DNA of 26,218 nt, counting the filler, from an uncultured virus (IMG/VR IMGVR_UViG_2061766007_000564) (Duplodnaviria > Heunggongvirae > Uroviricota > Caudoviricetes). It is 2 parts of one record of this genome, joined end to end, with 100 filler letters (N's around TTAATTAATTAA, not from the genome) between each part and the next. Parts side by side here need not be neighbours in the genome. Positions count along the whole stretch, not along the records: positions 1 to 15,802 come from IMGVR_UViG_2061766007_000564; 1 more part is not named here. One strand, written 5' to 3'. Below, piece by piece: positions 3,247 to 15,802 of this stretch (the stretch's first letter is position 1; each line of letters opens with the position of its first letter). The position numbers and the translations under genes were made by a program. The notes below the pieces were generated by a model that did no database searches, was not told the DNA's origin, and worked only from the letters and a program-made list of their open reading frames with translations.

Positions 3247-4254
3247 CTACCATGGGTTGTCCGGCTTCTGTTCGCCGGATGCCTTCTGCATAGACCGGAA
3301 TATGCTCCCGGGTTCGGCTTGCTTCCCGCCGGCGAAGGGCATGAAGGGCTCGGCTTCCTCATCTTCCGGGATTTCGTTATCATCTTCCTTGATTTCCGAT
3401 GCGTTCTTCCCGAGGAAACCCTTGAGGAACTTCGGGTCCAGCCCTCCAATCACGTCGTCCAGCGACACGACCTCCACGTCGGCCGCCCCGGCGTCGTCCC
3501 CGCACATCCCGGCCATCGCCTCGGCGTAGTCAGCGTTGTACACGCAGCCCTCGTCCGGGTCGACGTCCATCACGGACTCGGAAATCCCGGTGACCTCGGC
3601 CACCGTGCGGTACTTCCTGCAGTCCTTGACCCCGTTCCTTTCCAGGATTGCGTAGTCCTCGTCGTCGAGCTTCCTGGAGAAGTCGAGCCCGCGCCTTGCG
3701 ATAATCTCGCCGCCGGCCCTGGCGATGCGGTCTGCCTCCATGTCCTTATCCATGAGGCTGTCGTGGAGCTTCGGGTTGAACTCCTTGAGCACGTCGGTCA
3801 TGCTGATTGAGGTGGCGTCCGTCACGCCGAACCTGTCGAGGAACCTCGGGTACTTCGGGAGGGTCCCCATCTTCTCCGTGCCGTCCTTGAACGACTTGTA
3901 CCAGAACGGGATTACCGAGGTGTACTCGGCGAGCCTTTCCGGGCGGACGCCGTTGCCGTCGACCACGTCGTCGAACTCGTCGTAGTCCGGGACGGTAAGG
4001 CGCTTGGCCTGTTCCCTGGTCAGCTTGCTGTTGATTAGCCCGACCTTGGACGTGTCGCCCTTGATGTCAGACTCCACCTTCTTCTCTTCCGGGGTGTCTT
4101 CCGTGGTTTCCGTGGTTTCCGTGGTTTCCGGGGTTTCTTCCTTCTTCTCCGGCTGCACGCCGTCCACCTCGGCCGTCCATGCGCCGATGTCCTCGGCCTC
4201 CTTCTCGAAAGCCCGGTACGCCTCCTCGGCGGTTTCCTTGTCCAAATCTGCCAT
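3247..4254 (-). CDS. Acidic hypothetical protein (335 aa)
   Basis: ORF with phage-like codon bias, GGAG upstream of ATG 4254, D/E-rich termini; ends at the shared terminator. Confidence 0.8.
   Translation of the reverse strand: MADLDKETAEEAYRAFEKEAEDIGAWTAEVDGVQPEKKEETPETTETTETTEDTPEEKKVESDIKGDTSKVGLINSKLTREQAKRLTVPDYDEFDDVVDGNGVRPERLAEYTSVIPFWYKSFKDGTEKMGTLPKYPRFLDRFGVTDATSISMTDVLKEFNPKLHDSLMDKDMEADRIARAGGEIIARRGLDFSRKLDDEDYAILERNGVKDCRKYRTVAEVTGISESVMDVDPDEGCVYNADYAEAMAGMCGDDAGAADVEVVSLDDVIGGLDPKFLKGFLGKNASEIKEDDNEIPEDEEAEPFMPFAGGKQAEPGSIFRSMQKASGEQKPDNPW
4099..4137. repeat. 9-bp in-frame tandem repeat (TTCCGTGGT x3 plus a degenerate copy) encoding ETP-ETT-ETT-ETT
   Basis: Read directly: ttccgtggt ttccgtggt ttccgtggt ttccggggt ttc. 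Confidence 0.85.
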
Positions 4255-4345: not shown

Positions 4346-5386
4346 CTACCTGGACATCAGGACGTGGTTCCTGGAGCCGACACCGCCGTTTTCGGTGGTC
4401 ATCGTCCCGTAGCCGTTGTCGCTGAGAATCATGTCGGCGAGCTGGTCGTAGTCGACGTCATCCGGGGCGGAGAAGTCCTCTGAGTAGTCGGATACGCCCG
4501 GGGCTGTCCTGGGAGCGACGTCGAGGTCGTCGTTATCGGCGAAGATGTCGTCGACGGGAGCGCCGTAGTCGTCGTCGAGCTCGTAATCCTCGGTATCGTC
4601 GAGACCGAAACCGGGCGTAGTGGAGTTGATTGAGTCGACCTTGGGTTTCCCGGCGTTTGCCTTCTTCCCGCAGCAGCATTCCTCGAAGTTCAGTTCCTCG
4701 AGCTCGCCGTCGGCATCATAGGTGTTGTCGACATCGGATACGCCGTTGATGTTGTCCGGGTCTTCCAGGTACTTCGAATTGATTTTGTCCGCCTTGGTAT
4801 AGAGGTGCGGGCAGTTGTCCTCCGGATGGAACTTCGACGTGCCGTAGTTGTTCAGCTTGGCCTCGGTCAGCTTCTTATTCTCGCCTTCCGGCTTTTCCTG
4901 TTCGTCTTCGTCTTCGTCGGATTCGACGCATTCGCCGTCCTGGCATTCCTCGCCTTCGGGACATTCGTCGTCATCCTGGCATTCCTCGCACTCGCCATCC
5001 TCGCAGGTGCCGTCTTCGTATTCGTCGGTGTCGCCTCCGGCGTCGTTCATAGCGCCCTTGATGACATCCGCTGCGCCGGAGAGGTCGCCGCTGTTGATTT
5101 TCTCGTCAAGCGCGGAGCACACGCAGCCGAGGAACTGCTGTTCTTCCTCGTCCAGGTGAGGCAGGAAGCCGCCCACCAGGCCCTTGAACGCCGTCTCGAA
5201 GTCGCCGAGGGAAAGGCCGCCGGCAGACTCGGTCATCGCCTTCTTCGGGCGGATGTAGCCTTCCTTGACCGCAAAGCGGTACTTGAAACGGTCGATAGAA
5301 TCGTTGTTTGCGCCGTTCTTCAGGGAATCGGCGAAATTCATGTATGCCTCGAAGGCCGCCGGGCCGAGAGTACGCTTTGGTTTCAT
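4346..5386 (-). CDS. Highly acidic, Cys-patch hypothetical protein (~346 aa); candidate prohead core/scaffold-like protein
   Basis: ORF 4346-5479 with start reassigned to ATG 5386 (AAGGA 7 nt upstream, downstream of an ATAAACT motif). Very D/E-rich, with CEDGECEECQDDDECPEGEECQDGEC. Function is inference only. Confidence 0.75.
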   Translation of the reverse strand: MKPKRTLGPAAFEAYMNFADSLKNGANNDSIDRFKYRFAVKEGYIRPKKAMTESAGGLSLGDFETAFKGLVGGFLPHLDEEEQQFLGCVCSALDEKINSGDLSGAADVIKGAMNDAGGDTDEYEDGTCEDGECEECQDDDECPEGEECQDGECVESDEDEDEQEKPEGENKKLTEAKLNNYGTSKFHPEDNCPHLYTKADKINSKYLEDPDNINGVSDVDNTYDADGELEELNFEECCCGKKANAGKPKVDSINSTTPGFGLDDTEDYELDDDYGAPVDDIFADNDDLDVAPRTAPGVSDYSEDFSAPDDVDYDQLADMILSDNGYGTMTTENGGVGSRNHVLMSR

Positions 5387-5426
5387 TGACATATCCTTAT
5401 ACCTCACGTGGTACATTTTTATCCCA

Positions 5427-5433
5427 AGTTTAT
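5427..5433 (-). promoter_or_regulatory. ATAAACT promoter-like motif (leftward of a divergent pair)
   Basis: AGTTTAT on + is ATAAACT on -, 40 nt upstream of ATG 5386; the same heptamer occurs at 4 other intergenic sites. Confidence 0.6.
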
Positions 5434-5483
5434 ACCGTGCGCCCCGAAATTTTTGCCCGGAAAATCCTGGGCGTGCCATTCAC

Positions 5484-5490
5484 ATAAACT
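5484..5490 (+). promoter_or_regulatory. ATAAACT promoter-like motif heading the fibre cluster
   Basis: Intergenic, upstream of AGGAG (5500-5504) and ATG 5512. Confidence 0.6.
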
Positions 5491-5511
5491 ATGGATTACA
5501 GGAGTTTTACC

Positions 5512-5844
5512 ATGGCCACCGAGTACCACGTAGTAACATTGCCCAACAAGTCGAAGGTTCCCGTAAGGGACCACTATCTCAGGGACGGACGGACGTTTTC
5601 CGCCACTGGGGACGTACTGGCTTCCGAAGTCCGGTTCGACGGTACCGGGAATGTCCAGCTGAACACGAAACTGGCCGACGGCGTCATCCAGGTAAACAAC
5701 ATCAGCAACACATCCATAGCCAACAACATAAGCCAATCCAGTTCCACAGACAACCGCCTGGTGTCCGCCGGGGCGGTCGTGCAGGAACTGGAGAAGATTC
5801 AGCCGCTTCCTTGGGAAACGATAGATACCTTGTTTGACTGGTAA
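5512..5844 (+). CDS. Small phage fibre-type protein (110 aa)
   Basis: AGGAG before ATG 5512. Contains LRDGRTFSATGDVLASEVRFDGTGNVQL, resembling the 'RTIxLxGDxxGSxxFDGSxNV' tail-fibre shaft motif; ends LPWETIDTLFDW. Confidence 0.7.
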   Translation: MATEYHVVTLPNKSKVPVRDHYLRDGRTFSATGDVLASEVRFDGTGNVQLNTKLADGVIQVNNISNTSIANNISQSSSTDNRLVSAGAVVQELEKIQPLPWETIDTLFDW

Positions 5845-5860
5845 ATAATCGGCATATATG

Positions 5861-5867
5861 ATAAACT
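5861..5867 (+). promoter_or_regulatory. ATAAACT motif 7 nt before ATG 5875 (possible leaderless transcript)
   Basis: ATAAACT-CCGTGAT-ATG with no Shine-Dalgarno in between. Confidence 0.55.
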
Positions 5868-5874
5868 CCGTGAT

Positions 5875-6288
5875 ATGAGCGCAACTACGCAATACAGGGA
5901 GTTTGTCGATTTTCCGGGCCTGTCACACTTCTGGGACAAGGCCAAGTCCTACCTGCATACCCAGGTAACCGCACGGAAGCGCAATGACGCCTATGTCCCG
6001 GACCGGAGCTACCAGGAATTGGTGACCTTCATCGAAAAGGATGCCCCGGTCTACCCGACATTGAGGGTCGTCGACGGGAATTCGATAACGCAATACCCGC
6101 TGTACAGTTTCACGGACGGCATTTTCACGTTCCGCGGCATACCGGAAATGACCGCAGACCCGGAATACGGCATGCTAGGCGGCGTATCAACAAAGGAATT
6201 CACTTACGGACCGAGCGGTTTCCATGAAACCACACAGGAACTATCGGTACAGCCGGTGTCTCTCGGCACAATAGAGATAGGAGAATAA
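5875..6288 (+). CDS. Small fibre-associated/adaptor protein (137 aa)
   Basis: N-terminal FVDFPGLSHFWDKAK resembles the 'LDxxGLxxxWxKIK' start seen in many phage fibre-cluster proteins; tightly packed in the operon. Confidence 0.75.
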   Translation: MSATTQYREFVDFPGLSHFWDKAKSYLHTQVTARKRNDAYVPDRSYQELVTFIEKDAPVYPTLRVVDGNSITQYPLYSFTDGIFTFRGIPEMTADPEYGMLGGVSTKEFTYGPSGFHETTQELSVQPVSLGTIEIGE

Positions 6289-6289
6289 C

Positions 6290-7042
6290 ATGGCCACATA
6301 CATTCATCAAATCAATGGCTTACCGATTGCTGCTTCCGAAGCAGTTCCGGGGTCGCCGCTTGCCGACGCACTGGACGCCATTTCCGCCGGCGCATTCCGT
6401 ATCGCCCAGCTCACTACAGGCGAGAATCCCGTACCTGACGTCCCCATTCCATCGCCAAAAATCATCTACCTCACCAAGGATGAGAGCTCTACGGCGACTG
6501 ACCCGTATACAGAATGGATTTGGACCCAGGGTGACCCAACAGTCACCCCGCCAACTTCCGACAAGTGGGTCATTATCGGCACCACGTCTATTGCACTGGA
6601 GGACCTGGATTCCACGGTAGATTCCGGCCAGGACAACCACATTGAAATAGAAATCGTCGAGACTAACGGTAAGCTCGCATCGGTAACCGTCGTGCGTGAT
6701 GACACGGAAACCGTAGATAACAAGATTGCTGCATGGGGCACGCCGACCGATACACAGTATCCTAGCGCCAAGCTGACAAAGGACACCCTTGACACGAAGG
6801 CCGACAAGGTAACTGTTCCGGCCGGCTCCGACCCAAGCGGGCACATTCCGGAACTTGACGAACACGGCAATCTTGAGGATTCCGGCATCGAAGCGGCCAA
6901 TTTGGTCACCGACGTGACTGTCAACAGCGAAAGCGTCGTCGACAGGCAAACGAAAACCGCCGTGATACCGACCGCCGCACCCGGTGCAAACGGGGCTCCC
7001 GGCAACTACGGCGTTGTCACTATAGCAACAATGGAAATTTAA
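6290..7042 (+). CDS. Fibre-associated protein (250 aa) sharing modules with long fibre A
   Basis: AGGAG RBS. LDSTVDSGQDNHIEIEIVETNGKL...TQYPSAKLTKDTLDTKA matches LDATVTSSDGTNVQVKVTEADGKV...TKYPSEKLVKASLDGKA in fibre A; KADKV...LDEHGNLEDSG matches KADKV...LDGNGNLVDSG. Confidence 0.8.
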   Translation: MATYIHQINGLPIAASEAVPGSPLADALDAISAGAFRIAQLTTGENPVPDVPIPSPKIIYLTKDESSTATDPYTEWIWTQGDPTVTPPTSDKWVIIGTTSIALEDLDSTVDSGQDNHIEIEIVETNGKLASVTVVRDDTETVDNKIAAWGTPTDTQYPSAKLTKDTLDTKADKVTVPAGSDPSGHIPELDEHGNLEDSGIEAANLVTDVTVNSESVVDRQTKTAVIPTAAPGANGAPGNYGVVTIATMEI

Positions 7043-7056
7043 TGGGAGGATGACTG

Positions 7057-7302
7057 ATGCCCGAACAGACTGAACATGTATACCTGGTTAACGGGAAGCC
7101 CCTGGCGGCTTCCAACGTGGTACCGGATTCGGCACTGTCCGATGTTCTCGACTCGAAGGCGGACGTAGCCGACCTTAACGCATTCGTGACCGACGTAAAG
7201 GATGCCGGTGGAACTAGTCTCGTAGACCAAAATACGCACGAAGCAAAAATAAACGAAACCACCGACGAAGAAATTAGCGGCATACTGGCCGCCCTAAATT
7301 AG
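7057..7302 (+). CDS. Small fibre adaptor protein (81 aa), N-terminus paralogous to 6290-7042
   Basis: GGAGG RBS. VYLVNGKPLAASNVVPDSALSDVLD aligns with IHQINGLPIAASEAVPGSPLADALD; ends TTDEEISGILAALN. Confidence 0.75.
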   Translation: MPEQTEHVYLVNGKPLAASNVVPDSALSDVLDSKADVADLNAFVTDVKDAGGTSLVDQNTHEAKINETTDEEISGILAALN

Positions 7303-7317
7303 GCAGGAGTGAAAAAA

Positions 7318-10300
7318 ATGGCTGACCCGGTATTACCCACCTCGACCAACAACGTAACCACCAGGAAACTGGCAGCGACCATACAGGGTGTATGGGAAAA
7401 AATTGACACCAAGAAGGCTGACAAGGTCTCCCAGGCTACCAGCGGGAACTACGCGTCCCTCGACGGTAACGGGAACCTGGTTGACTCCGGGCATAAGCAT
7501 ACGGACTATGCCTCCTCGACACAGGGCGGCAAGGCCGATACCGCCGTGCAAAGCGTCAAGATGGGTTCGAGCTCCGGTACCGAGCTCAAGTCCGGCACCA
7601 ACGTGGTGATTCCCGCAGCCGTGGCCACCGGTACATCCGGGGCAACCAGCGGCGTGATGACTTCCGATGACAAGAAGAAGCTCAACGAAATCGCCGCCGG
7701 CGCCGAAGTCAACCAGAACGCGTTCAGTAACGTCGTCGTTGGCAGTACGACCATCGCCGCCGATTCCAAGACCGACTCGCTCACGCTCGCCCAGGGTACG
7801 CACATCACCCTTACCCCGAGTTCAGCAGACGACAAGGTAACCATCGCTACCGACCTCTCCAGCAAGAGCGCCACGTCCGGCGGCGCAGAGGAATCTCTTG
7901 TCACCACCGGTGAAAAGTATACCTGGAATTCCAAGCAGGACACCGTTGTATGGCACGATACCTACAACGCCTCTTCAAACAAGGGTGCGACCAAGAAAAC
8001 CGTCGATGATGCAATCGCCGCATTGGATGTATCCAGCATTACCTCAACCCTTGGCGTAAGCAAGACAATTACCGAGCTCTCCGAAACAGACGGTAAAATT
8101 GCGGCAACCGCAAGTCCAATACAGATTGCCGAAAGCCAGGTCACTAACCTGACTAACGACCTTGCCTCGAAGGCACCCCTGGACTCCCCGGCCCTGACCG
8201 GGACACCTACGGCGCCGACGGCAACAGCGGGCACCAACACAACCCAAATCGCCACGACCGCATTTGTCGTAACCGAAATCGAAGACCGTATCGGTTCATC
8301 CGACGCCCTGGTGTACAAGGGAACTATTACGCTTGGTACAACTGCCCCGGGTGCATTTACCGGCGCGGCGGATGCCGGGTGGATGTACAAGGTAGTTGCT
8401 AACGGAACTACGAAACACGGTTACGTTGACGGCGTTGCTGTGGAAGTCGGCGACATGCTCATCTGTAATACCGACGGTACCGCAGCGGCAACATCCAGTA
8501 ACTACCAAACAATTGTAGCGAAGTGGGACTTCATCCAGACAAACCTCGATGGCGTCGTAACAGGGCCAAACAGTGCCACAGCAGCAAGCGTTGCCGGATT
8601 CTCGGATACGACCGGAAAGGTTATTAAGCAACTGTCTGCAACCGAAATAAAGACCGCTGCCGGTCTGGATAAGGTAAAGAACCAGGCAATCACAGTTACT
8701 AGCACAAGCGTATCCGACGGAACCAATACGTTCAATAAGTACGAACACCCGACGACCACGGCAGTCTCGGCCGCCGCAGTCAAGGTAGGTAACGACGCTA
8801 CCGGTCACGTAGTCCTCGGCGCAGCACTTACGAAATCCGATGTCGGCCTCGGCAACGTCGTCAATACGGGCGACAGTGCAACACCAGTTTCTGGCGGAAC
8901 TACCAAGTTCACGACCGGCGGTGCGTACACCGAACTCAACAAGAAAGTCGATAAGGTTGACGGGAAGGGTCTTTCCACCAATGACTACACCACGGCCGAG
9001 AAGACCAAGCTCGCCGGTATCGCCGAAGGCGCGGAAGTCAACCAGAACGCCTTCAGCAACGTGAAGGTGGGCAGCACAACCGTAGCAGCCGATACCAAGA
9101 CGGATACTGTTGAATTCGTCGGTAGCGGTCATGTCACAATCACCGGCGATGCAACTAACGACAAGGTTACGTTCGCTACCGACCTTGAAAGCAAATCGGC
9201 CGCATCCGGCGGTACCGATGTGTCTCTGGTGACGACAGGCGAAAAGTATACCTGGAACAGCAAGGCCGGCGGCACCCATGCACATGGTAACATTACCAAT
9301 GACGGTAAAGTCGGGTCTACAGCCGATTACTCATTGGTTACCACTACCGGGGGTGCAGTAACCGCAGTAAGCATGGCTGTTTCATCGCCTACCGCATCGG
9401 GAAATACCCTGTCATTCATTGACACCGTATCGCAATCCAGCAATGGAAAGATTTCCGCAACCAAGAAATCCGTCACGGTCGACTCGACTTACTCATCCAC
9501 CGGCACCAACCCGGTGAACGGCACTGCCGTTAAGGCAGCTATCGACACTTTGGATGCAACCGTAACCAGTTCAGACGGAACAAACGTCCAGGTGAAGGTT
9601 ACCGAGGCTGACGGCAAGGTAACCGCAGTGAATATCACTACGGATAATACCGAAAACAAGAACAACAAGGTCACCTCTTGGTCAGCAACCACATCCGATA
9701 CTAAGTACCCGTCGGAAAAACTGGTGAAAGCCTCGCTTGATGGAAAGGCTGCCTCCAGCCATGCTCACGGGAACATCACCAACGACGGCAAGATTACCTC
9801 CGACACGGCCATCGCCAACGGCACGAAGCTCGCCACGGTGGGGACCGACAACAAGGTCGCCCGCTCCCCGATAACATTCGACGGGTCCACAACGACCACA
9901 GCCCTCACCCCGAAGGGGACGTTCGAGTCGTTCGCCAAACAGGCCGACATCGACGAGGCAATCGAGGATATCCCGAGTATCAGCCTCGTGGGCGACAACC
10001 ACATCACGGTCACCTCCGACGATACCACCGGTACTGTCACTGTTGCTACCGACATCGCCTCCCAGACGGCCTACACGGCCAAGGGAAGCGCCACCAAGGT
10101 TCCGCAGATTACAACCAACTCCCTCGGCCAGGTGACCGGCATCACCGAAGTAGCAATCTCCGGTGTAACACCAGCGTCCCACACGCATGGCAATATCGCC
10201 AATGACGGTACGTTAACCGATACTGCGGCTGCGGCAGCCGGAAACGACTATGTTGTCATAAGGGATGCGGATAATGCGAAAATCCAGACCTCGACGATTA

Positions 10301-11082
10301 AAGGAACTGATGTTGCGGATGCCGTGAGCAAGAAGCACTCGCATAGTACGCTGACATTGTCAACTACTGCACAGGCTTATGACGGTACGCATACGCTAGC
10401 CTTGCCTTCAACCGACCCCTATACTTCTGCAAGAACACCTGCCTCGCATACTCATGGAAACATTCAGAATGGCGGTACATTGCAGACTACTGACGTAGCC
10501 ATCGCATCAGGTGACAAACTGGTTATTACCGACTCATCCGACTCCAACAAGGTAGCCAGGGCTTCAATTAGTTTTGACGGTTCTACCGCGACCAAGGCAC
10601 TTACGCAGAAGGGTACCTGGGAAACCTTCAATAACTATGTCCACCCGACCACCTCCGGGAATAAGCACATTCCAAGCGGGGGAGCTGCCGGGAATATCCT
10701 TGGATGGTCCGCGGATGGCACGGCTACCTGGATAGCCAATACTTCGACATCCCGTGGCCAGGGTTACAGTGCAACCGCTACCAACAGTAGCGGAACATTC
10801 GCAGTGACACTGTCCGGCTACGAACTGGTCGATGGCGGTATCGTATCAATCAAGTTCAGTGCGGCAGTACCGGCTAATGCCAAGCTCAATATCAACAGCA
10901 AGGGTGCCAAGAGCATATACTACAGGGGGAGTGCGATTACCGCCGACATTATCCAGTCGGGTGATACTGCAACCTTCATGTACAATAGCACAGGTGGAGT
11001 ATATCACCTTATCGCTGTAGACCGCAGCGCCGGGGAAATGACAGACCAGGAAGTTACCGACTTGCTGGATTCATTGACTTAA
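7318..11082 (+). CDS. Long tail/head fibre protein A (~1254 aa)
   Basis: AGGAG 8 nt before ATG 7318. T/S/A/G-rich; KAPLDSPALTGTPTAPTATAGTNTTQIATTAFV (P2 gpH/Mu S-type fibre motif), KVDKVDGKGLSTNDYTTAEKTKLAGI, several HxH motifs (HAH, HTH, HSH), C-terminal KF...LNINSKGAKSIYY domain. Confidence 0.9.
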   Translation: MADPVLPTSTNNVTTRKLAATIQGVWEKIDTKKADKVSQATSGNYASLDGNGNLVDSGHKHTDYASSTQGGKADTAVQSVKMGSSSGTELKSGTNVVIPAAVATGTSGATSGVMTSDDKKKLNEIAAGAEVNQNAFSNVVVGSTTIAADSKTDSLTLAQGTHITLTPSSADDKVTIATDLSSKSATSGGAEESLVTTGEKYTWNSKQDTVVWHDTYNASSNKGATKKTVDDAIAALDVSSITSTLGVSKTITELSETDGKIAATASPIQIAESQVTNLTNDLASKAPLDSPALTGTPTAPTATAGTNTTQIATTAFVVTEIEDRIGSSDALVYKGTITLGTTAPGAFTGAADAGWMYKVVANGTTKHGYVDGVAVEVGDMLICNTDGTAAATSSNYQTIVAKWDFIQTNLDGVVTGPNSATAASVAGFSDTTGKVIKQLSATEIKTAAGLDKVKNQAITVTSTSVSDGTNTFNKYEHPTTTAVSAAAVKVGNDATGHVVLGAALTKSDVGLGNVVNTGDSATPVSGGTTKFTTGGAYTELNKKVDKVDGKGLSTNDYTTAEKTKLAGIAEGAEVNQNAFSNVKVGSTTVAADTKTDTVEFVGSGHVTITGDATNDKVTFATDLESKSAASGGTDVSLVTTGEKYTWNSKAGGTHAHGNITNDGKVGSTADYSLVTTTGGAVTAVSMAVSSPTASGNTLSFIDTVSQSSNGKISATKKSVTVDSTYSSTGTNPVNGTAVKAAIDTLDATVTSSDGTNVQVKVTEADGKVTAVNITTDNTENKNNKVTSWSATTSDTKYPSEKLVKASLDGKAASSHAHGNITNDGKITSDTAIANGTKLATVGTDNKVARSPITFDGSTTTTALTPKGTFESFAKQADIDEAIEDIPSISLVGDNHITVTSDDTTGTVTVATDIASQTAYTAKGSATKVPQITTNSLGQVTGITEVAISGVTPASHTHGNIANDGTLTDTAAAAAGNDYVVIRDADNAKIQTSTIKGTDVADAVSKKHSHSTLTLSTTAQAYDGTHTLALPSTDPYTSARTPASHTHGNIQNGGTLQTTDVAIASGDKLVITDSSDSNKVARASISFDGSTATKALTQKGTWETFNNYVHPTTSGNKHIPSGGAAGNILGWSADGTATWIANTSTSRGQGYSATATNSSGTFAVTLSGYELVDGGIVSIKFSAAVPANAKLNINSKGAKSIYYRGSAITADIIQSGDTATFMYNSTGGVYHLIAVDRSAGEMTDQEVTDLLDSLT
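7672..9264 (+). repeat. Two dispersed 88-aa copies inside fibre A (7672-7935 and 9001-9264)
   Basis: KKKLNEIAAGAEVNQNAFSNVVVGSTTIAADSKTD...SLVTTGEKYTWNSK versus KTKLAGIAEGAEVNQNAFSNVKVGSTTVAADTKTD...SLVTTGEKYTWNSK. Confidence 0.9.
10174..10440 (+). repeat. Single copy in fibre A of the 267-bp/89-aa HxH module that is tandemly repeated in fibre B
   Basis: ASHTHGNIANDGTLTD...DPYTSARTP; differs from each fibre B copy at about 2 residues. Confidence 0.95.
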
Positions 11083-11102
11083 CTTGAGTAAAGGAGACTA
11101 TC

Positions 11103-12560
11103 ATGGCGTTCATAAAGGTTGGAAACAAAGTACTGAAATGCGACGGTAAGGTCGTCACGAACGACCTGGTCCTCCTGGTTAAACTTGGTGGAGACGGGAA
11201 GACCCTCACGGTCACCCCGACAAAGGACATATCGGCAACACTTACCAGGTACATGCTGGTACTCACGCCAGCTTCCGGTAGCCCGACCGAGGTGAATATC
11301 GGGAATACCGGCACGTACGACCTGTCCTCGCTCCACGGGACCGTACAGGACGGAAAGTACACCCTGTCGGTATACGCGGTGCTCTCGTCCGGGAACACGG
11401 CCCCCTTCGGCAGCATAGAGTACTACGTCCTCGCGCCGTGCAACGCGATGACGCTGAGGTTCAAGTTCAGTAAGAGTGGATATGACCCAGTTAATGCTGG
11501 TGTAGGAAGCGCCGGGACATGGAACCACCTGATTGACGACGTCTGGGACTGGACCAACACGAATGCCGACTGGCACGAGGCGTTCAAGGGGGCGTTTGCG
11601 GCAGACGACAACGAGGTCGAGGTGATAGGGGCCGGGGATACCTCCGGGGTGACCAACGTAAACAAGATGTTCGCAGGTATATACAGCGGAACCCCGTCCA
11701 GCAATTGGACATTGACTTCTACAAATAATGTGGTTGAATGTATATCGTTTGACTTATCAAATTGCACTAATGTACAAACGATGTTCTGTGCATCCAATTT
11801 ACGGCATGCAAATTTTGACTTATCCAATATAAGTGTTGGTTTGTCCGGGTTCTACGCAGCCACGCAATTAACTAAAGTATCTTCCATAAATCTTGGCCAT
11901 GCCACTGAGATTTCTAACCTTTTTGCAAGATGTAGCGCCCTAGTCACCGTAGGTAGTCTAACAATTTCTGCAAATCTCACAAACTGTATGGCAGTATTCT
12001 ATAGTGATGACAATCTTGAATATTTTAGTGGATTTGTCGGTGACCTCTCTCATGTAACCATTTACCATTCAATCTTCACGGGATGCGTGTCATTAAAAAG
12101 CATAGGTACCCCAATCAACCTGATAGGCTGTAGAGGGACGACCGCATGTCCCCAATTATTTGCCAACTGTTACGAACTGGTTGATGTCCAAGTCATAAAT
12201 TTCACTTCAGCAATTACCGCAATGAACGCCATGTATGGCGGCTGCCGGAAAATGCCGAATATGCCCATAGGCTTAGATACGTCGAAAATATCCAATTTTA
12301 AGAGTGCATTCGCCAATATGAGGGAAATTGAGACCATAGAAGATATTAACGTGGCTTCGGCAACGAACGTGAACAGTATGTTTTTAAAATGCTTTAACGT
12401 GAAATACGGAATACTGGAAATGTACAATAAGCTAGTGGCAAGAGGCGCGGCAATCACCGACCACACTAATTGCTTTTCGGATTGTGGTCGGGATACCCCA
12501 GAAGGACAAGCTGCACTAGCCCAGATACCGGCCGACTGGGGCGGAACCATGTCAACCTAG
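11103..12560 (+). CDS. DUF285/BspA-like (PARCEL-type) repeat surface/adhesin protein (485 aa)
   Basis: AAGGAG RBS. Repeats DTSGVTNVNKMF, FDLSNCTNVQTMF, DLSHVTIYHSIF, DTSKISNFKSAF, NVASATNVNSMF; C-terminal cap CGRDTPEGQAALAQIPADWGG; lies between two fibre genes. Confidence 0.8.
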   Translation: MAFIKVGNKVLKCDGKVVTNDLVLLVKLGGDGKTLTVTPTKDISATLTRYMLVLTPASGSPTEVNIGNTGTYDLSSLHGTVQDGKYTLSVYAVLSSGNTAPFGSIEYYVLAPCNAMTLRFKFSKSGYDPVNAGVGSAGTWNHLIDDVWDWTNTNADWHEAFKGAFAADDNEVEVIGAGDTSGVTNVNKMFAGIYSGTPSSNWTLTSTNNVVECISFDLSNCTNVQTMFCASNLRHANFDLSNISVGLSGFYAATQLTKVSSINLGHATEISNLFARCSALVTVGSLTISANLTNCMAVFYSDDNLEYFSGFVGDLSHVTIYHSIFTGCVSLKSIGTPINLIGCRGTTACPQLFANCYELVDVQVINFTSAITAMNAMYGGCRKMPNMPIGLDTSKISNFKSAFANMREIETIEDINVASATNVNSMFLKCFNVKYGILEMYNKLVARGAAITDHTNCFSDCGRDTPEGQAALAQIPADWGGTMST

Positions 12561-12567
12561 TTAAATC

Positions 12568-12596
12568 GCCCAGCCAACCGGCTGGGTTTCCTTTTG
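12568..12596 (+). terminator. Intrinsic terminator
   Basis: CCCAGCC-AACC-GGCTGGG followed by TTTCCTTTTG, 8 nt after the TAG at 12560. Confidence 0.75.
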
Positions 12597-12611
12597 CCCG
12601 ATTAAAACCAT

Positions 12612-12618
12612 ATAAACT
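12612..12618 (+). promoter_or_regulatory. ATAAACT promoter-like motif before fibre B
   Basis: TATAAACT directly after the terminator, upstream of GAGGA and ATG 12645. Confidence 0.6.
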
Positions 12619-12644
12619 GCTGATATCATTGAGGAATCGTACCC

Positions 12645-15600
12645 ATGGCAGCACCTACTACAGACCACGACGTTACCGCACGCAAGCTAACCAAGTTCCT
12701 TGTCGGCTCGGACGGCACCGGAGGCCTCTGGGGTAAAATCAAGACGCTGCTTGCCGGGAAACAAGATACTCTTGCGGCGCAGACCGCATATACGTCAAAG
12801 GGTACGGCAACGAAGGTTCCTCAGATTACTACAAATAGTCTCGGTCAAGTCACCGGGATTACCGAAGTAACCATTACTGGGGTTACTCCGGCATCGCATA
12901 CCCATGGTAATATCGCCAACGGCGGTACATTGACCGATACTGCGGCTGCGGCAGCCGGAAATGACTACGTTGTTATCCGCGATGCAGATAACGCAAAGAT
13001 TCAGACTTCTACCATTAAAGGTACGGATGTAGCCGATGCTGTGAGTAAAAAGCATAGTCACAGCACATTGACCTTGTCGACTACAGCACAAGCGTATGAC
13101 GGCTCGCATACACTGGCATTGCCTTCAACTGACCCGTATACTTCAGCAAGAACGCCGGCTTCACATACCCACGGAAACATTGCAAACGGCGGTACATTGA
13201 CAGATACGGCGGCAGCGGCGGCGGGAAATGACTATGTGGTTATCCGCGATGCAGATAACGCAAAGATTCAGACCTCCACCATCAAGGGCACGGATGTAGC
13301 GGATGCCGTCAGTAAGAAACACTCGCACAGCACACTGACCTTGTCAACTACCGCACAGGCGTATGACGGGTCCCATACACTGGCATTGCCTTCTACCGAC
13401 CCATATACTTCCGCAAGAACACCTGCCTCGCATACGCATGGCAATATCGCAAACGGAGGTACTCTTACTGACACAGCAGCGGCTGCCGCAGGAAATGACT
13501 ATGTGATTATCCGCGATGCAGATAACGCAAAAATTCAGACTTCTACCATCAAGGGTACAGATGTGGCTGATGCGGTGAGTAAGAAGCATAGCCATTCTAC
13601 ACTAACGCTATCTACTACTGCACAGGCCTATGACGGAACCCACACATTAGCGTTACCGTCAACCGACCCCTATACTTCCGCAAGAACACCTGCCTCNNNN
13701 NNNNNNNNNNNNNNNNNNNNNNNNNNNNNNNNNNNNNNNNNNNNNNNNNNNNNNNNNNNNNNNNNNNNNNNNNNNNNNNNNNNNNNNNNNNNNNNNNNNN
13801 NNNNNNNNNNNNNNNNNNNNNNNNNNNNNNCACACAGAAGGGCACCTGGGAAACCTTCAATAACTACACCCACCCGGCATACACGGCCACTACAGCTGCA
13901 GCCAAGAAGATTGGCTGTGATGCCACCGGTCATGTCGTGTTCGGCGATGCGCTGGCAAAGGGCGATGTCGGTCTCGGAAGCGTGGTGAACACAGGCGACT
14001 CGGCAACACCCGTCAGCGGTGGCACAACCAAGTTCACTACCGGTGGCGCTTATACGGAGCTGGCGAAGAAGGCTAATGTTGCTGAATCGGTGTATTACGT
14101 AGCCGGTACTACCAGCTATAGCGCATGGACCGCAAATACGGCCTATGCAGTAAATGCCGAAGTCACTTATGGCGGAAAGGCATATTACTGTAAGACTGCC
14201 CACACATCTGGTTCCTCATGGGATAGCTCCAAGTGGACAGCCATTGCTACTCCGGTGCTGAAAGGTACCGTTTCCGGGGTTACCGCACTGTATGCTGGCA
14301 TGAAAATTGCATATAAGTGGCCAATCACCGGAGGTAGTTCAAGTACCTATCTGAACATCAATGGCCTCGGCAACGTGTATATTAGGCGAAATGACAGCAA
14401 TACTACTACACACTTGCCGGCCAATACGGTATCCATACTGACGTATGATGGTACATACTGGCGCTGGGCAGACTACGATTCAAACAGCAATACGGAATAC
14501 ATTATCCCGGATGCATATTGCTCCACAGCGGCCGGAACAGCAGCAAAGGCAGCGACTTGCGTTGGCTTCAATCTGACCAACCATGTCAATGTGCCGTTCA
14601 GGATTTACTTCACTGTCGCCAACACATCCGCCGGTGCATTGACGCTTAGCCTAAACAGCCAGACGGCAAAACCGATATATATCAACGGCACTGCGTCTAG
14701 CGCAACCAACTACACTATTCCAATTGGTGTGTACTGGTGCGTATACGACGGAACGGAATTCTTGTTATGGACCGACAAGCGGTTTACCGGACGTACACAG
14801 GGTGACGGAAGGAACTTGCTTAGTGCGTTCAACTATAGCGCCTCTAGGTTCACCGCAACTAATCCATCCGATGACATCAATGGCGCATCGTATACACATA
14901 ACAAAGTAACGGGTGACTCCTACATTCAAATAAAAGCCACTGAACCGATAGCTACCGGCGAAATGTTGACACTGTCATTCGATGTGTCAGGGTTGAATAC
15001 CTCTGGAAATGAATATGCTTCTTTTTTGGCGTACGCACTAAATAAAGTTATTACACATACTATTAACAAAAATGGTAGATGTGTGTATTACTTTACAAAA
15101 ACTGAAACAGCTGATATCACGACCGGGTCGGTAGTTAATATATTGGATGATAATACCAATATATACGCCTCGGCACCATCAGGAATCACTATATCCAATA
15201 TTAAACTGGAACGTGGTTTCGTAGCTGACCCGAAGTATACTAGGCATCCCTCGGAGAGCCGAGTAGCCAAGGCAGACAAGATTGCTGCATCCGCCAAGAT
15301 TGGGGATACCAACAAACCGGTCTACATCGCTGCTGACGGCACCGTAACAGCCGGGTCTACCTATGCTGCCGGTACCGCAGTTACCCTCAACGGTACATCG
15401 AAATCTGCGACGACCGCATCCTTCTATGCGCCTACTGGCGCTGGTACTTCCGGCCAGCTCCTGAAGTCATCCGGTTCCGGTGCACCAACCTGGGCAACCG
15501 CAAACGCCGCCCTGGTAGGCATTACGGTAACTTCTACTTCCGTATCCGATGGAACCAACACGTTCAACAAGTACACCCACCCGACCTATACGGCCCAGTC

Positions 15601-15802
15601 AGCAAAGGGAAGTGCCACCAAGGTTCCACAGATTACCACGGATTCTACCGGACACGTTACCGGAATTACCGAAGTAACCATTACCGGCGTNNNNNNNNNN
15701 TCATGGGAACATCCAGAACGGTGGTACGCTCCAGACCACTGATGTGACTATTGCATCAGGTGACAAACTGGTTATTACCGACTCATCCGACTCCAACAAG
15801 GT
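12645..15802 (+). CDS. Long tail/head fibre protein B (>1000 aa, 3'-truncated, interrupted by N gaps)
   Basis: ORFs 12645-13696, 13832-15690 and 15702-15802 are pieces of one gene. The sequence on each side of both gaps continues modules that are contiguous in fibre A (ARTPAS...TQKGTWETFNNY; ITEVTITGV...HGNIQNGGTLQTTDV). Contains 3 tandem 89-aa repeats, a CBM5/12-like segment, two LNINGLG-type domains and a GRNLL...KLERG domain. Confidence 0.85.
12891..13691 (+). repeat. Three tandem 267-bp (89-aa) coding repeats starting at 12891, 13158 and 13425
   Basis: Unit ASHTHGNIANGGTLTDTAAAAAGNDYVVIRDADNAKIQTSTIKGTDVADAVSKKHSHSTLTLSTTAQAYDGSHTLALPSTDPYTSARTP; the array runs into an N gap. Confidence 0.97.

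Follow-up and report, generated by a model that had tools for sequence, protein, structure and literature searches.

The long tail fiber of phage T4 consists of gp34, gp35, gp36 and gp37, separate and mostly trimeric products of neighboring genes joined in gene order. The gp36 trimer attaches to gp37 at its N-terminal region, and the receptor-binding tip of the fiber is the C-terminal end of the last protein (PMC3004832). In podophages of Klebsiella (KP32, K11, KP34), receptor-binding protein (RBP) 1 carries a branching domain and RBP2 a conserved N-terminal docking peptide (PMC13352976), and in the Listeria monocin a “treble hook” at the C-terminus of FtbN receives the “latch” domains with which FtbO and FtbP begin (PMC11830787). 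In crAss001, the tail hub takes up residues 1–26 of gp22, a protein to which further fiber proteins bind; the tail fibers of the Crassvirales, the most abundant gut phages, are poorly resolved, including the way in which their several fiber proteins are held together (PMC10172136). Here, we analyze a fiber gene cluster of an uncultured virus, IMGVR_UViG_2061766007_000564, contained in a stretch of 26,218 nucleotides (nt), filler included, which we call the window. Neighboring proteins of this cluster bear C- and N-terminal ends of two matching kinds, X and Y, and matched ends are also seen between consecutive fiber genes of many gut phages; from their sequences we consider it on balance probable that these ends are non-covalent head-to-tail connectors joining separately made fiber pieces.

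According to this proposal, the cluster would encode one long, possibly branched tail fiber made of separately translated segments, the C-terminal peptide of each segment binding the N-terminal peptide of another. In class X, a short helix of acidic character at the C-terminus ([IM]T[ND]xE[IV]xx[IL]L...) would meet an amphipathic helix at the N-terminus (GLxxFWxK[IV]K, in the window also VT[TA]RKL...GxWxKI). In class Y, the C-terminal partner would be a strand-like, hydrophobic peptide (...V.[IV].T[IM][ED][IL]) and the N-terminal one the peptide Y[IV]xx[IV]NGxx[IL]AAS. With the smaller proteins named by their length in amino acids (aa), the chain would read 117 -X- 137 -Y- 250 -Y- 81 -X- fiber A -X- fiber B, the 137- and 81-aa proteins converting one connector class into the other (Table 1). 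The ends in the window are balanced, with three X C-ends for three X N-ends and two Y C-ends for two Y N-ends, and the terminal peptides quoted in a first-pass annotation of this DNA were all found in the open reading frame (ORF) translations where that annotation had placed them. For the joints themselves we infer a peptide–peptide contact, a 3:3 stoichiometry and a geometry that would perhaps be a helical bundle for X and strand addition for Y.

The cluster resembles the T4 fiber in that separately encoded products of neighboring genes would lie end to end, and the gene map, the shaft repeats, a CBM_5_12 module and the fiber B orthologue of locus L119 describe neighboring fibrous-protein genes with the distal tip in the last one. 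It differs in that T4 has a monomeric knee protein and in that no sequence relation was seen: fiber A matched no PDB chain at E ≤ 1 and no Pfam family, and no homology with T4 gp34–gp37 was detected. The T4 joints, moreover, are not short portable peptides that are reused, whereas here the connector recurs up to three times per cluster and in unrelated backbones. As in the Klebsiella podophages, docking would fall to a short, conserved peptide at the N-terminus of the downstream protein and the modules would be exchangeable, but the socket there is an internal domain of RBP1 serving one branch, while here it would be the extreme C-end in a chain of up to six; no window protein matched a T4gp10-like branching domain in Pfam or PHROG. 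The monocin likewise combines products of consecutive genes, and a shaft repeat, ...MSxxDKxKLD, is common to its FtbO and X-class fibers (E 5e-5), this repeat being the only match of the L013 fiber among solved structures; its beta-hairpin latches on a large hook, however, form a 1:4 branched assembly with no helix–helix peptide pair. In crAss001, gp22 is docked in the hub by its N-terminus with further fibers hanging on it (PMC10172136), and one of our loci, L010, holds a homologue, but gp22–gp26 carry neither X nor Y motifs. The “chain-like fibers” of A1002, as far as they are described in PMC13730344, follow a different design. Our literature search, from which supplementary files were excluded, returned no paper describing these particular motifs; the earlier remark, that no description of such a system was known, stands for the motifs within this search and fails for the principle, which is known from T4, the Klebsiella podophages and the monocin. 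In modular polyketide synthases and nonribosomal peptide synthetases, short C- and N-terminal peptides of separate subunits set the partners, with established cognate specificity; that system is unrelated, and cognate specificity is conjectural for the fiber ends.

For class X, we scanned viral_contigs for a degenerate DNA pattern encoding GLxxFWxK[IV]K, which gave at least 113 stretches, and took the flanks for 80 of them. The connector class was defined as a C-end ...ITNxEIDxL[FA] followed by an N-end LDxxGLxYFWxKIK, and the ends were scored with hidden Markov models (HMMs) over all 956 called ORFs, with a bimodal distribution of scores. The motif lay within the first 32 residues in 54 of the 58 ORFs bearing GLxxFWxK[IV]K. 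Among 549 dereplicated adjacent same-strand gene pairs from at least 113 IMG/VR loci, 47 combined an upstream C-end with a downstream N-end. In 23 pairs just the downstream gene carried its end, in 11 just the upstream gene, and 468 pairs had neither. An N-end thus stood downstream of 47 of the 58 X C-ends, against 23 of 491 other pairs (odds ratio 87, Fisher p 8e-40), with the reservation, counted among the weaknesses of our proposal, that the loci were selected via the N-motif and many of the phages are related, so the p-values overstate independence. Gene calls in these loci were crude; a simpler version of the count based on regular expressions gave 44, 16, 13 and 473 pairs in the same order. 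The ends behave as pairs spanning two genes and not as properties of single proteins, in indirect support of the docking reading given in the first-pass annotation.

Pairing was stronger across the gene boundary (47/58) than within one protein, where an N-end was also present in 36 of 74 ORFs with a C-end and a C-end in 36 of 86 ORFs with an N-end. Complete multi-gene runs read as a C-only gene, any number of genes with both ends and an N-only gene in 28 of 34 cases without violation, and L002, a distant AT-rich viral contig, shows the same end grammar over five consecutive genes. These figures bear on an arrangement of fibers in parallel, in which all X-N (or Y-N) peptides would bind the same baseplate or hub site, the C-ends would be homotrimer caps and adjacency would follow from tandem genes. 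N-terminal docking peptides shared by several RBPs are a familiar design (PMC13352976), runs of the types “nn”, “nnn” and “cnn” occur, and the unbalanced end counts of L002/L080 and L223 given below would suit it. The excess of cross-gene over within-protein pairing and the placing of C-only genes first and N-only genes last speak against it, as do the 81-aa protein, a 69-aa protein of L004 and the 149-aa gp22-like protein described next, none of which has a distal body and which would be useless free-standing. We consider parallel fibers unlikely. Head-to-tail connectors would also account for proteins of 47–176 aa at other loci that contain little beyond one end of each kind, and the adaptor-like pairing of ends that had been ascribed to small proteins of the window is seen both in its 81-aa protein and in these.

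The gp22-like protein links an X end to the hub-docked fiber base of an experimentally solved virion. In the crAss-like contig L010, portal- and gp21-like genes stand in the same order as in crAss001, and the product of L010:4510-4959 (149 aa) is 42% identical over residues 1–128 to crAss001 gp22 residues 1–125 (E 8e-29). It stops after the gp22-like domain with ...IPITNIEIDNLFA, an X C-motif; the next gene encodes a 403-aa protein with X-N and X-C ends that begins MKFLDLNGLTHFWSKVK and ends ...ITTAEIDALFA, and then comes a 137-aa X-N-like protein beginning MKFLDLNGLKHLL. A stub of this kind, with a hub-docking domain and nothing else but an X C-end, would be meaningful only as a support for the next protein. 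At the place where hub domain and spike body are covalently linked in crAss001, L010 has, by alignment, a gene boundary flanked by the motifs. The hub-docking homology was seen for L010:4510-4959 only, and the 117-aa protein of the window showed no similarity to gp22 (E 0.10).

Connector ends occur with unrelated protein bodies. The same fiber cassette of 350–400 aa plus ~140 aa lies behind three unrelated adaptors, in L010, L020/L058 and L005, and overall 27 combinations of bodies meet at the X connector, drawn from 16 clusters on the upstream and 23 on the downstream side. Such mosaicism, together with an HNH homing-type cassette located exactly at two different junctions, could be explained if the junction peptides were mainly recombination linkers for cassette exchange with no docking role. 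The DNA, however, offers little identity for recombination: 43 different DNA sequences of the nine-codon C-core were seen, for 29 peptides, with an entropy of 1.3–1.9 bits at third positions and ~0 bits at the first and second positions of conserved residues, and the intergenic gaps vary from 1 to 52 nt. Because third codon positions are near saturation and positions 1 and 2 of the fixed residues invariant, the X motif is, on this codon pattern, under protein-level selection and includes no conserved DNA linker. Cassette exchange would be expected equally of universal connectors, and we regard pure recombination linkers as quite unlikely.

The cassette in question consists of a 64-aa ORF and a 412–415-aa protein with RRXRR and HNH domains (Pfam E 5e-47 and 3e-11) and was observed at L046:5110-6612 (-), L070:6233-7744 and L078:2287-3798 (-), exactly at X junctions, two different ones among related phages. 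Possibly this is a homing element aimed at the conserved junction. In L046 it separates the 166-aa C-end gene from the 347-aa N-end gene, both intact, and in L070/L078 it follows the second junction gene; L017 has no insert. Given the L046 insert and a DUF285 gene inserted between fibers A and B in the window, adjacency of the partners is, from gene order, dispensable, and a cis mechanism such as translational coupling is argued against.

Three clusters related to the window, L116, L117 and L119, were found by scanning metagenome contigs with the 137-aa family. All have the order 117, 137, ~250, 81/104/112, fiber A and, where the contig extends, fiber B; the kinds of ends are unchanged, and the middles differ by insertions and deletions. 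The 117-aa orthologues of L117 and L119 end ...ETIDTLFDW, and the L119 orthologue of fiber B (1076 aa) has no X C-end at its terminus. Fiber B had been named as the partner of fiber A although it is next but one in the window, past the DUF285 gene; in L116 and L119 that gene is missing and fiber B directly follows fiber A, which upholds the assignment. The absence of the DUF285 gene, of BspA-type leucine-rich-repeat (LRR) kind, at this site suggests that it is an insertion in the phage of the window, probably a recent moron-like accessory gene, and its lower G+C (0.48–0.50) fits.

Within the protein families, the X and Y N-ends are conserved and the bodies variable, as in a docking-type N-terminal peptide. 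Four short relatives in the 137-aa family (P0001–P0006) have the C-end T[IM]EI, and relatives occur on contigs up to 326 kb; in the other two members, P0005 and P0006 (236–239 aa), the core domain is present twice and the C-end reads ...KYDTAII / ...KYDTTTI. In the alignment of the 250-aa family, the N-end and a GVV..T.. C-end are kept and the ~40 columns before the C-end are variable. An HMMER search of 1.84 billion representatives found three relatives in all of the 81-aa protein (81, 104 and 78 aa), and no match was found in viral_contigs; the first ~34 and last ~16 residues of this family are conserved, and the middle gains or loses a fiber-shaft repeat, present in the 104- and 112-aa forms.

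The 117-, 137- and 81-aa proteins might instead be non-virion assembly chaperones or factors for the neighboring fibers. Small genes adjoining fiber genes are often chaperones, such as T4 gp38 and gp57A (PMC3004832), and none of the three has a Pfam or PHROG assignment. The position of the small genes upstream and not downstream of the fibers does not fit this role, nor does the pattern of conservation in the 81-aa family, which spares both ends and not a core. The repeat gained by 81-aa orthologues, KADKV..G..LD..GNL.DSG, is moreover shared with fiber A and the 250-aa protein, and a chaperone function appears very unlikely.

For class Y, five loci emerged when we searched with the 250-aa family. 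In L225, a 399-aa protein with a Y N-end, the Pfam family Phage_fiber_2 and the end VVTVETATI precedes a 1473-aa protein with a Y N-end; in L224, a 421-aa protein that begins ...YLDEDGLKLLYSRL and ends ...ITTVDL precedes a 485-aa Y protein; and in L227, a 71-aa protein ending ...YKELEM lies ahead of a 448-aa protein beginning ...IYKIDGYRLLAASA. L223 encodes a 158-aa protein resembling the 137-aa adaptor (ending VDITVEPLD), followed by a 772-aa protein whose Y N-end is a variant; another variant is found on an additional 887-aa protein. To judge by these termini, Y ends and converter proteins recur in diverse phages, four others in the case of the junction. Two Y N-end variants exchange positions between genomes of the window's own family, which argues against a finer cognate specificity within Y. 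The code of cognate pairs that had been suggested is seen at the level of two classes, and a code beyond them is not supported.

A degenerate DNA pattern for the Y N-end was less productive as a search tool, with 97 stretches that were mostly other things and a single true N-terminal Y end (L187). A large group of these stretches, at many of the loci L125–L221 (e.g., L137 and L140), belongs to a family of long proteins with an internal ...GPFLFN...LNGYPLAA[ST]NQVP... stretch; it lies 100–900 codons into the ORF and resembles the Y N-end.

Several observations weigh against head-to-tail connectors. The order is broken in 6 of the 34 complete X runs. The 23 X N-ends that come after genes under the C-end threshold form another group; about half of these upstream genes have visibly variant C-ends (ISKSEINNITNF, SETDISNIFN, ITEEQITDITSK and others), and L045, L056, L063, L076 and L080 are exceptions with no divergent-looking C-end. 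Conversely, 11 X C-ends lack a following N-end. L002/L080 hold three X C-ends for four X N-ends, a 417-aa X-N gene of L080 coming after a gene with no X C-end, and L223 has two Y C-ends for three Y N-ends, with a 564-aa Y protein placed before the protein resembling the 137-aa adaptor, in swapped order. In L080 and L223 the order of the genes thus departs from that of the proposed chain, and strict gene-order assembly is not supported. The natural fusions that might have been expected were not found either: no in-frame fusion or read-through of X ends occurred in the IMG/VR loci (0 fused; nine X junctions are in the same frame, each with a stop codon), none of the three relatives of the 81-aa protein is fused to anything, and of 474 candidate relatives of the 117-aa protein none is longer or fused. 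The lack of X and Y motifs in crAss001 gp22–gp26 belongs to the same list.

Two of the window's own X junctions likewise fit poorly with the general models, which were built solely from unrelated AT-rich IMG/VR loci with cut-offs of 9 bits for the N-end and 6 bits for the C-end. The N-ends of the 137-aa protein (23.3 bits), fiber B (16.9 bits) and the L119 fiber B (11.7 bits) pass, and that of fiber A scores just 2.0 bits. Among the C-ends, the 117-aa protein lies just under the cut-off (4.6 bits), the 81-aa protein and fiber A reach 0.9 and 0.4 bits, and the only one above it, at 7.4 bits, is that of the 112-aa protein of L119, orthologous to the 81-aa protein. From these scores, the 117/137 junction is probably of the common X kind, and the 81/A and A/B junctions probably belong to a diverged subtype.

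The same division emerged when the ends inside the window were compared with each other by local alignment against 5000 shuffles. The real score was reached by 0/5000 shuffles for the Y N-ends of the 250- and 81-aa proteins, the X N-ends of fibers A and B and the X C-ends of the 81-aa protein and fiber A. The Y C-ends of the 137- and 250-aa proteins (146/5000) and the X N-ends of the 137-aa protein and fiber B (109/5000) were marginal, and the comparisons of the 137-aa protein with fiber A (N-ends, 1108/5000) and of the 117-aa protein with the 81-aa protein and fiber A (C-ends, 752/5000 and 2463/5000) were not significant alone. The single “type X” of the first-pass annotation hence holds for the 81/A C-ends and the A/B N-ends, and its links to the 117/137 ends are weak; within the window, X appears as two subtypes whose connection is not significant by itself. 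The non-significant and marginal values are what a chance resemblance of short motifs would produce, but the pairs reached by no shuffle, the conservation in orthologous clusters and the association in other phages leave that explanation hardly credible, and for the X class in general it is already refuted. Judged on all these sequences, the matching of ends is a real observation and, for class X, a general one.

The AlphaFold2 (AF2) model of the 137-aa protein has a confident core at residues 28–124, and residues 1–26 and the last ~10 have a predicted local distance difference test score (pLDDT) <50, with a helix at 16–27 in the low-confidence N-terminal stretch; a Foldseek comparison of this model with the PDB gave 0 fold matches at E ≤ 0.001. 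For a natural 69-aa protein with both X ends, AF2 in single-sequence mode predicted helices at 6–32 and 60–67, with a predicted template modeling score (pTM) of 0.32, uninformative on packing. In these monomer models the ends are low-confidence or unpacked and the X ends are predicted helices, in agreement with the helix label they had been given at the outset; the models are silent on contact.

A broader extension can be offered as a tentative and rather doubtful one: two orthogonal portable connectors, with X as a pair of helices and Y as a pair of strand type, might form, with tiny X-to-Y and Y-to-X converters, a general kit with which crAss-like and other large uncultured phages build long or branched fibers, connector type and not gene order setting the assembly and distal modules being swappable between unrelated backbones. 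If the joint proposed here is real, its recognizable sequence would make fiber architecture (which protein sits on which, and which one is distal) readable from genomes alone and would explain the mosaic pattern of fiber genes. It would also offer a concrete interface for cryo-electron microscopy or pull-downs, and annotators could treat many tiny “hypothetical” genes in fiber clusters as adaptors.

Some candidates from the X searches were set aside. The Firmicutes phages Terrisporobacter TPELB_ph1 and Clostridium phiCT19406B match in the shaft repeat only and have no X ends, as do most of the 56 records matched by the 69-aa query. A covariation of subtypes (GLxH N-ends after ...LF C-ends, 8/9) was discounted as too confounded by relatedness. 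The cr10_1 and cr1_1 regions showed no clear X array; in L121 (NC_055875.1, crAss-like phage cr10_1), at 4991–8116, a 587-aa fiber-like gene has an annotated reverse transcriptase immediately upstream, which may represent a diversity-generating retroelement beside the fiber.

Table 1. Features of the fiber gene cluster and their positions in the window.
Feature	Position	Strand	Basis or remark
117-aa first segment	5491..5844	+	ORF translation; start possibly ATG at 5512
117-aa protein, C-end PWETIDTLFDW	5809-5841	+	X C-end of widespread class, near threshold
137-aa putative adaptor: X N-end, folded core, Y C-end	5875..6288	+	ORF translation
137-aa protein, X N-end FVDFPGLSHFWDKAK	5902-5946	+	ORF translation
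137-aa protein, Y C-end PVSLGTIEIGE	6253-6285	+	ORF translation
250-aa segment, Y at both ends	6290..7042	+	ORF translation, start MATYIHQINGLPIAAS
250-aa protein, Y N-end YIHQINGLPIAAS	6299-6337	+	Alignment with relatives
250-aa protein, Y C-end VVTIATMEI	7013-7039	+	ORF translation
81-aa putative adaptor, hardly anything between its two ends	7057..7302	+	ORF translation
81-aa protein, Y N-end ...VYLVNGKPLAAS	7078-7113	+	ORF translation
81-aa protein, X C-end TTDEEISGILAALN	7258-7299	+	ORF translation
Fiber A, 1257 aa, probable true start ATG 7318	7309..11082	+	Relatives begin at ATG 7318
Fiber A, X N-end ...VTTRKLAATIQGVWEKID	7354-7407	+	ORF translation
Fiber A, X C-end MTDQEVTDLLDSLT	11038-11079	+	ORF translation
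DUF285/BspA-like gene, 485 aa, between fibers A and B, outside the chain	11103..12560	+	Pfam
Fiber B, N-terminal part, later interrupted by runs of N	12645..13700	+	ORF translation
Fiber B, X N-end VTARKLTKFLV...GGLWGKIK	12672-12743	+	ORF translation

The cluster belongs to a tight gene run on the + strand at 5.4–15.8 kb of the window. Runs of N at about 13.6–13.85 kb and 15.7–17 kb break fiber B and later genes, and the C-end of fiber B, the distal end of the chain, is unreadable there as a result. Among the window proteins, Pfam names DUF285 (PF03382, E 8.2e-12, 45.4 bits against a gathering cut-off of 25) and, in ORF 13937-15742, a CBM_5_12 module, and a distal ORF has a weak PHROG tail-fiber match. 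Genes nearby have a phage-like character, among them members of SbcC-like and exonuclease families in PHROG, and megablast of the cluster against phage records gave no match and hence no near-identical phage.

The N-terminal part of fiber B contains three 267-nt tandem repeats (12888–13690, 82% matches) encoding ~89-aa units with paired-histidine motifs (SHTHGNI, KKHSHS), and similar units occur in the C-terminal half of fiber A. Since histidine pairs coordinate iron in the stalks of monocin FtbO (PMC11830787), these could possibly be metal-binding shaft repeats.

Divergent from the fiber operon, on the - strand at 3247–4254 and 4346–5479, the window encodes two very acidic proteins with no Pfam or PHROG family, the second of which contains a Cys/Glu/Asp-rich stretch, CEDGECEECQDDDECPEGEECQDGEC.

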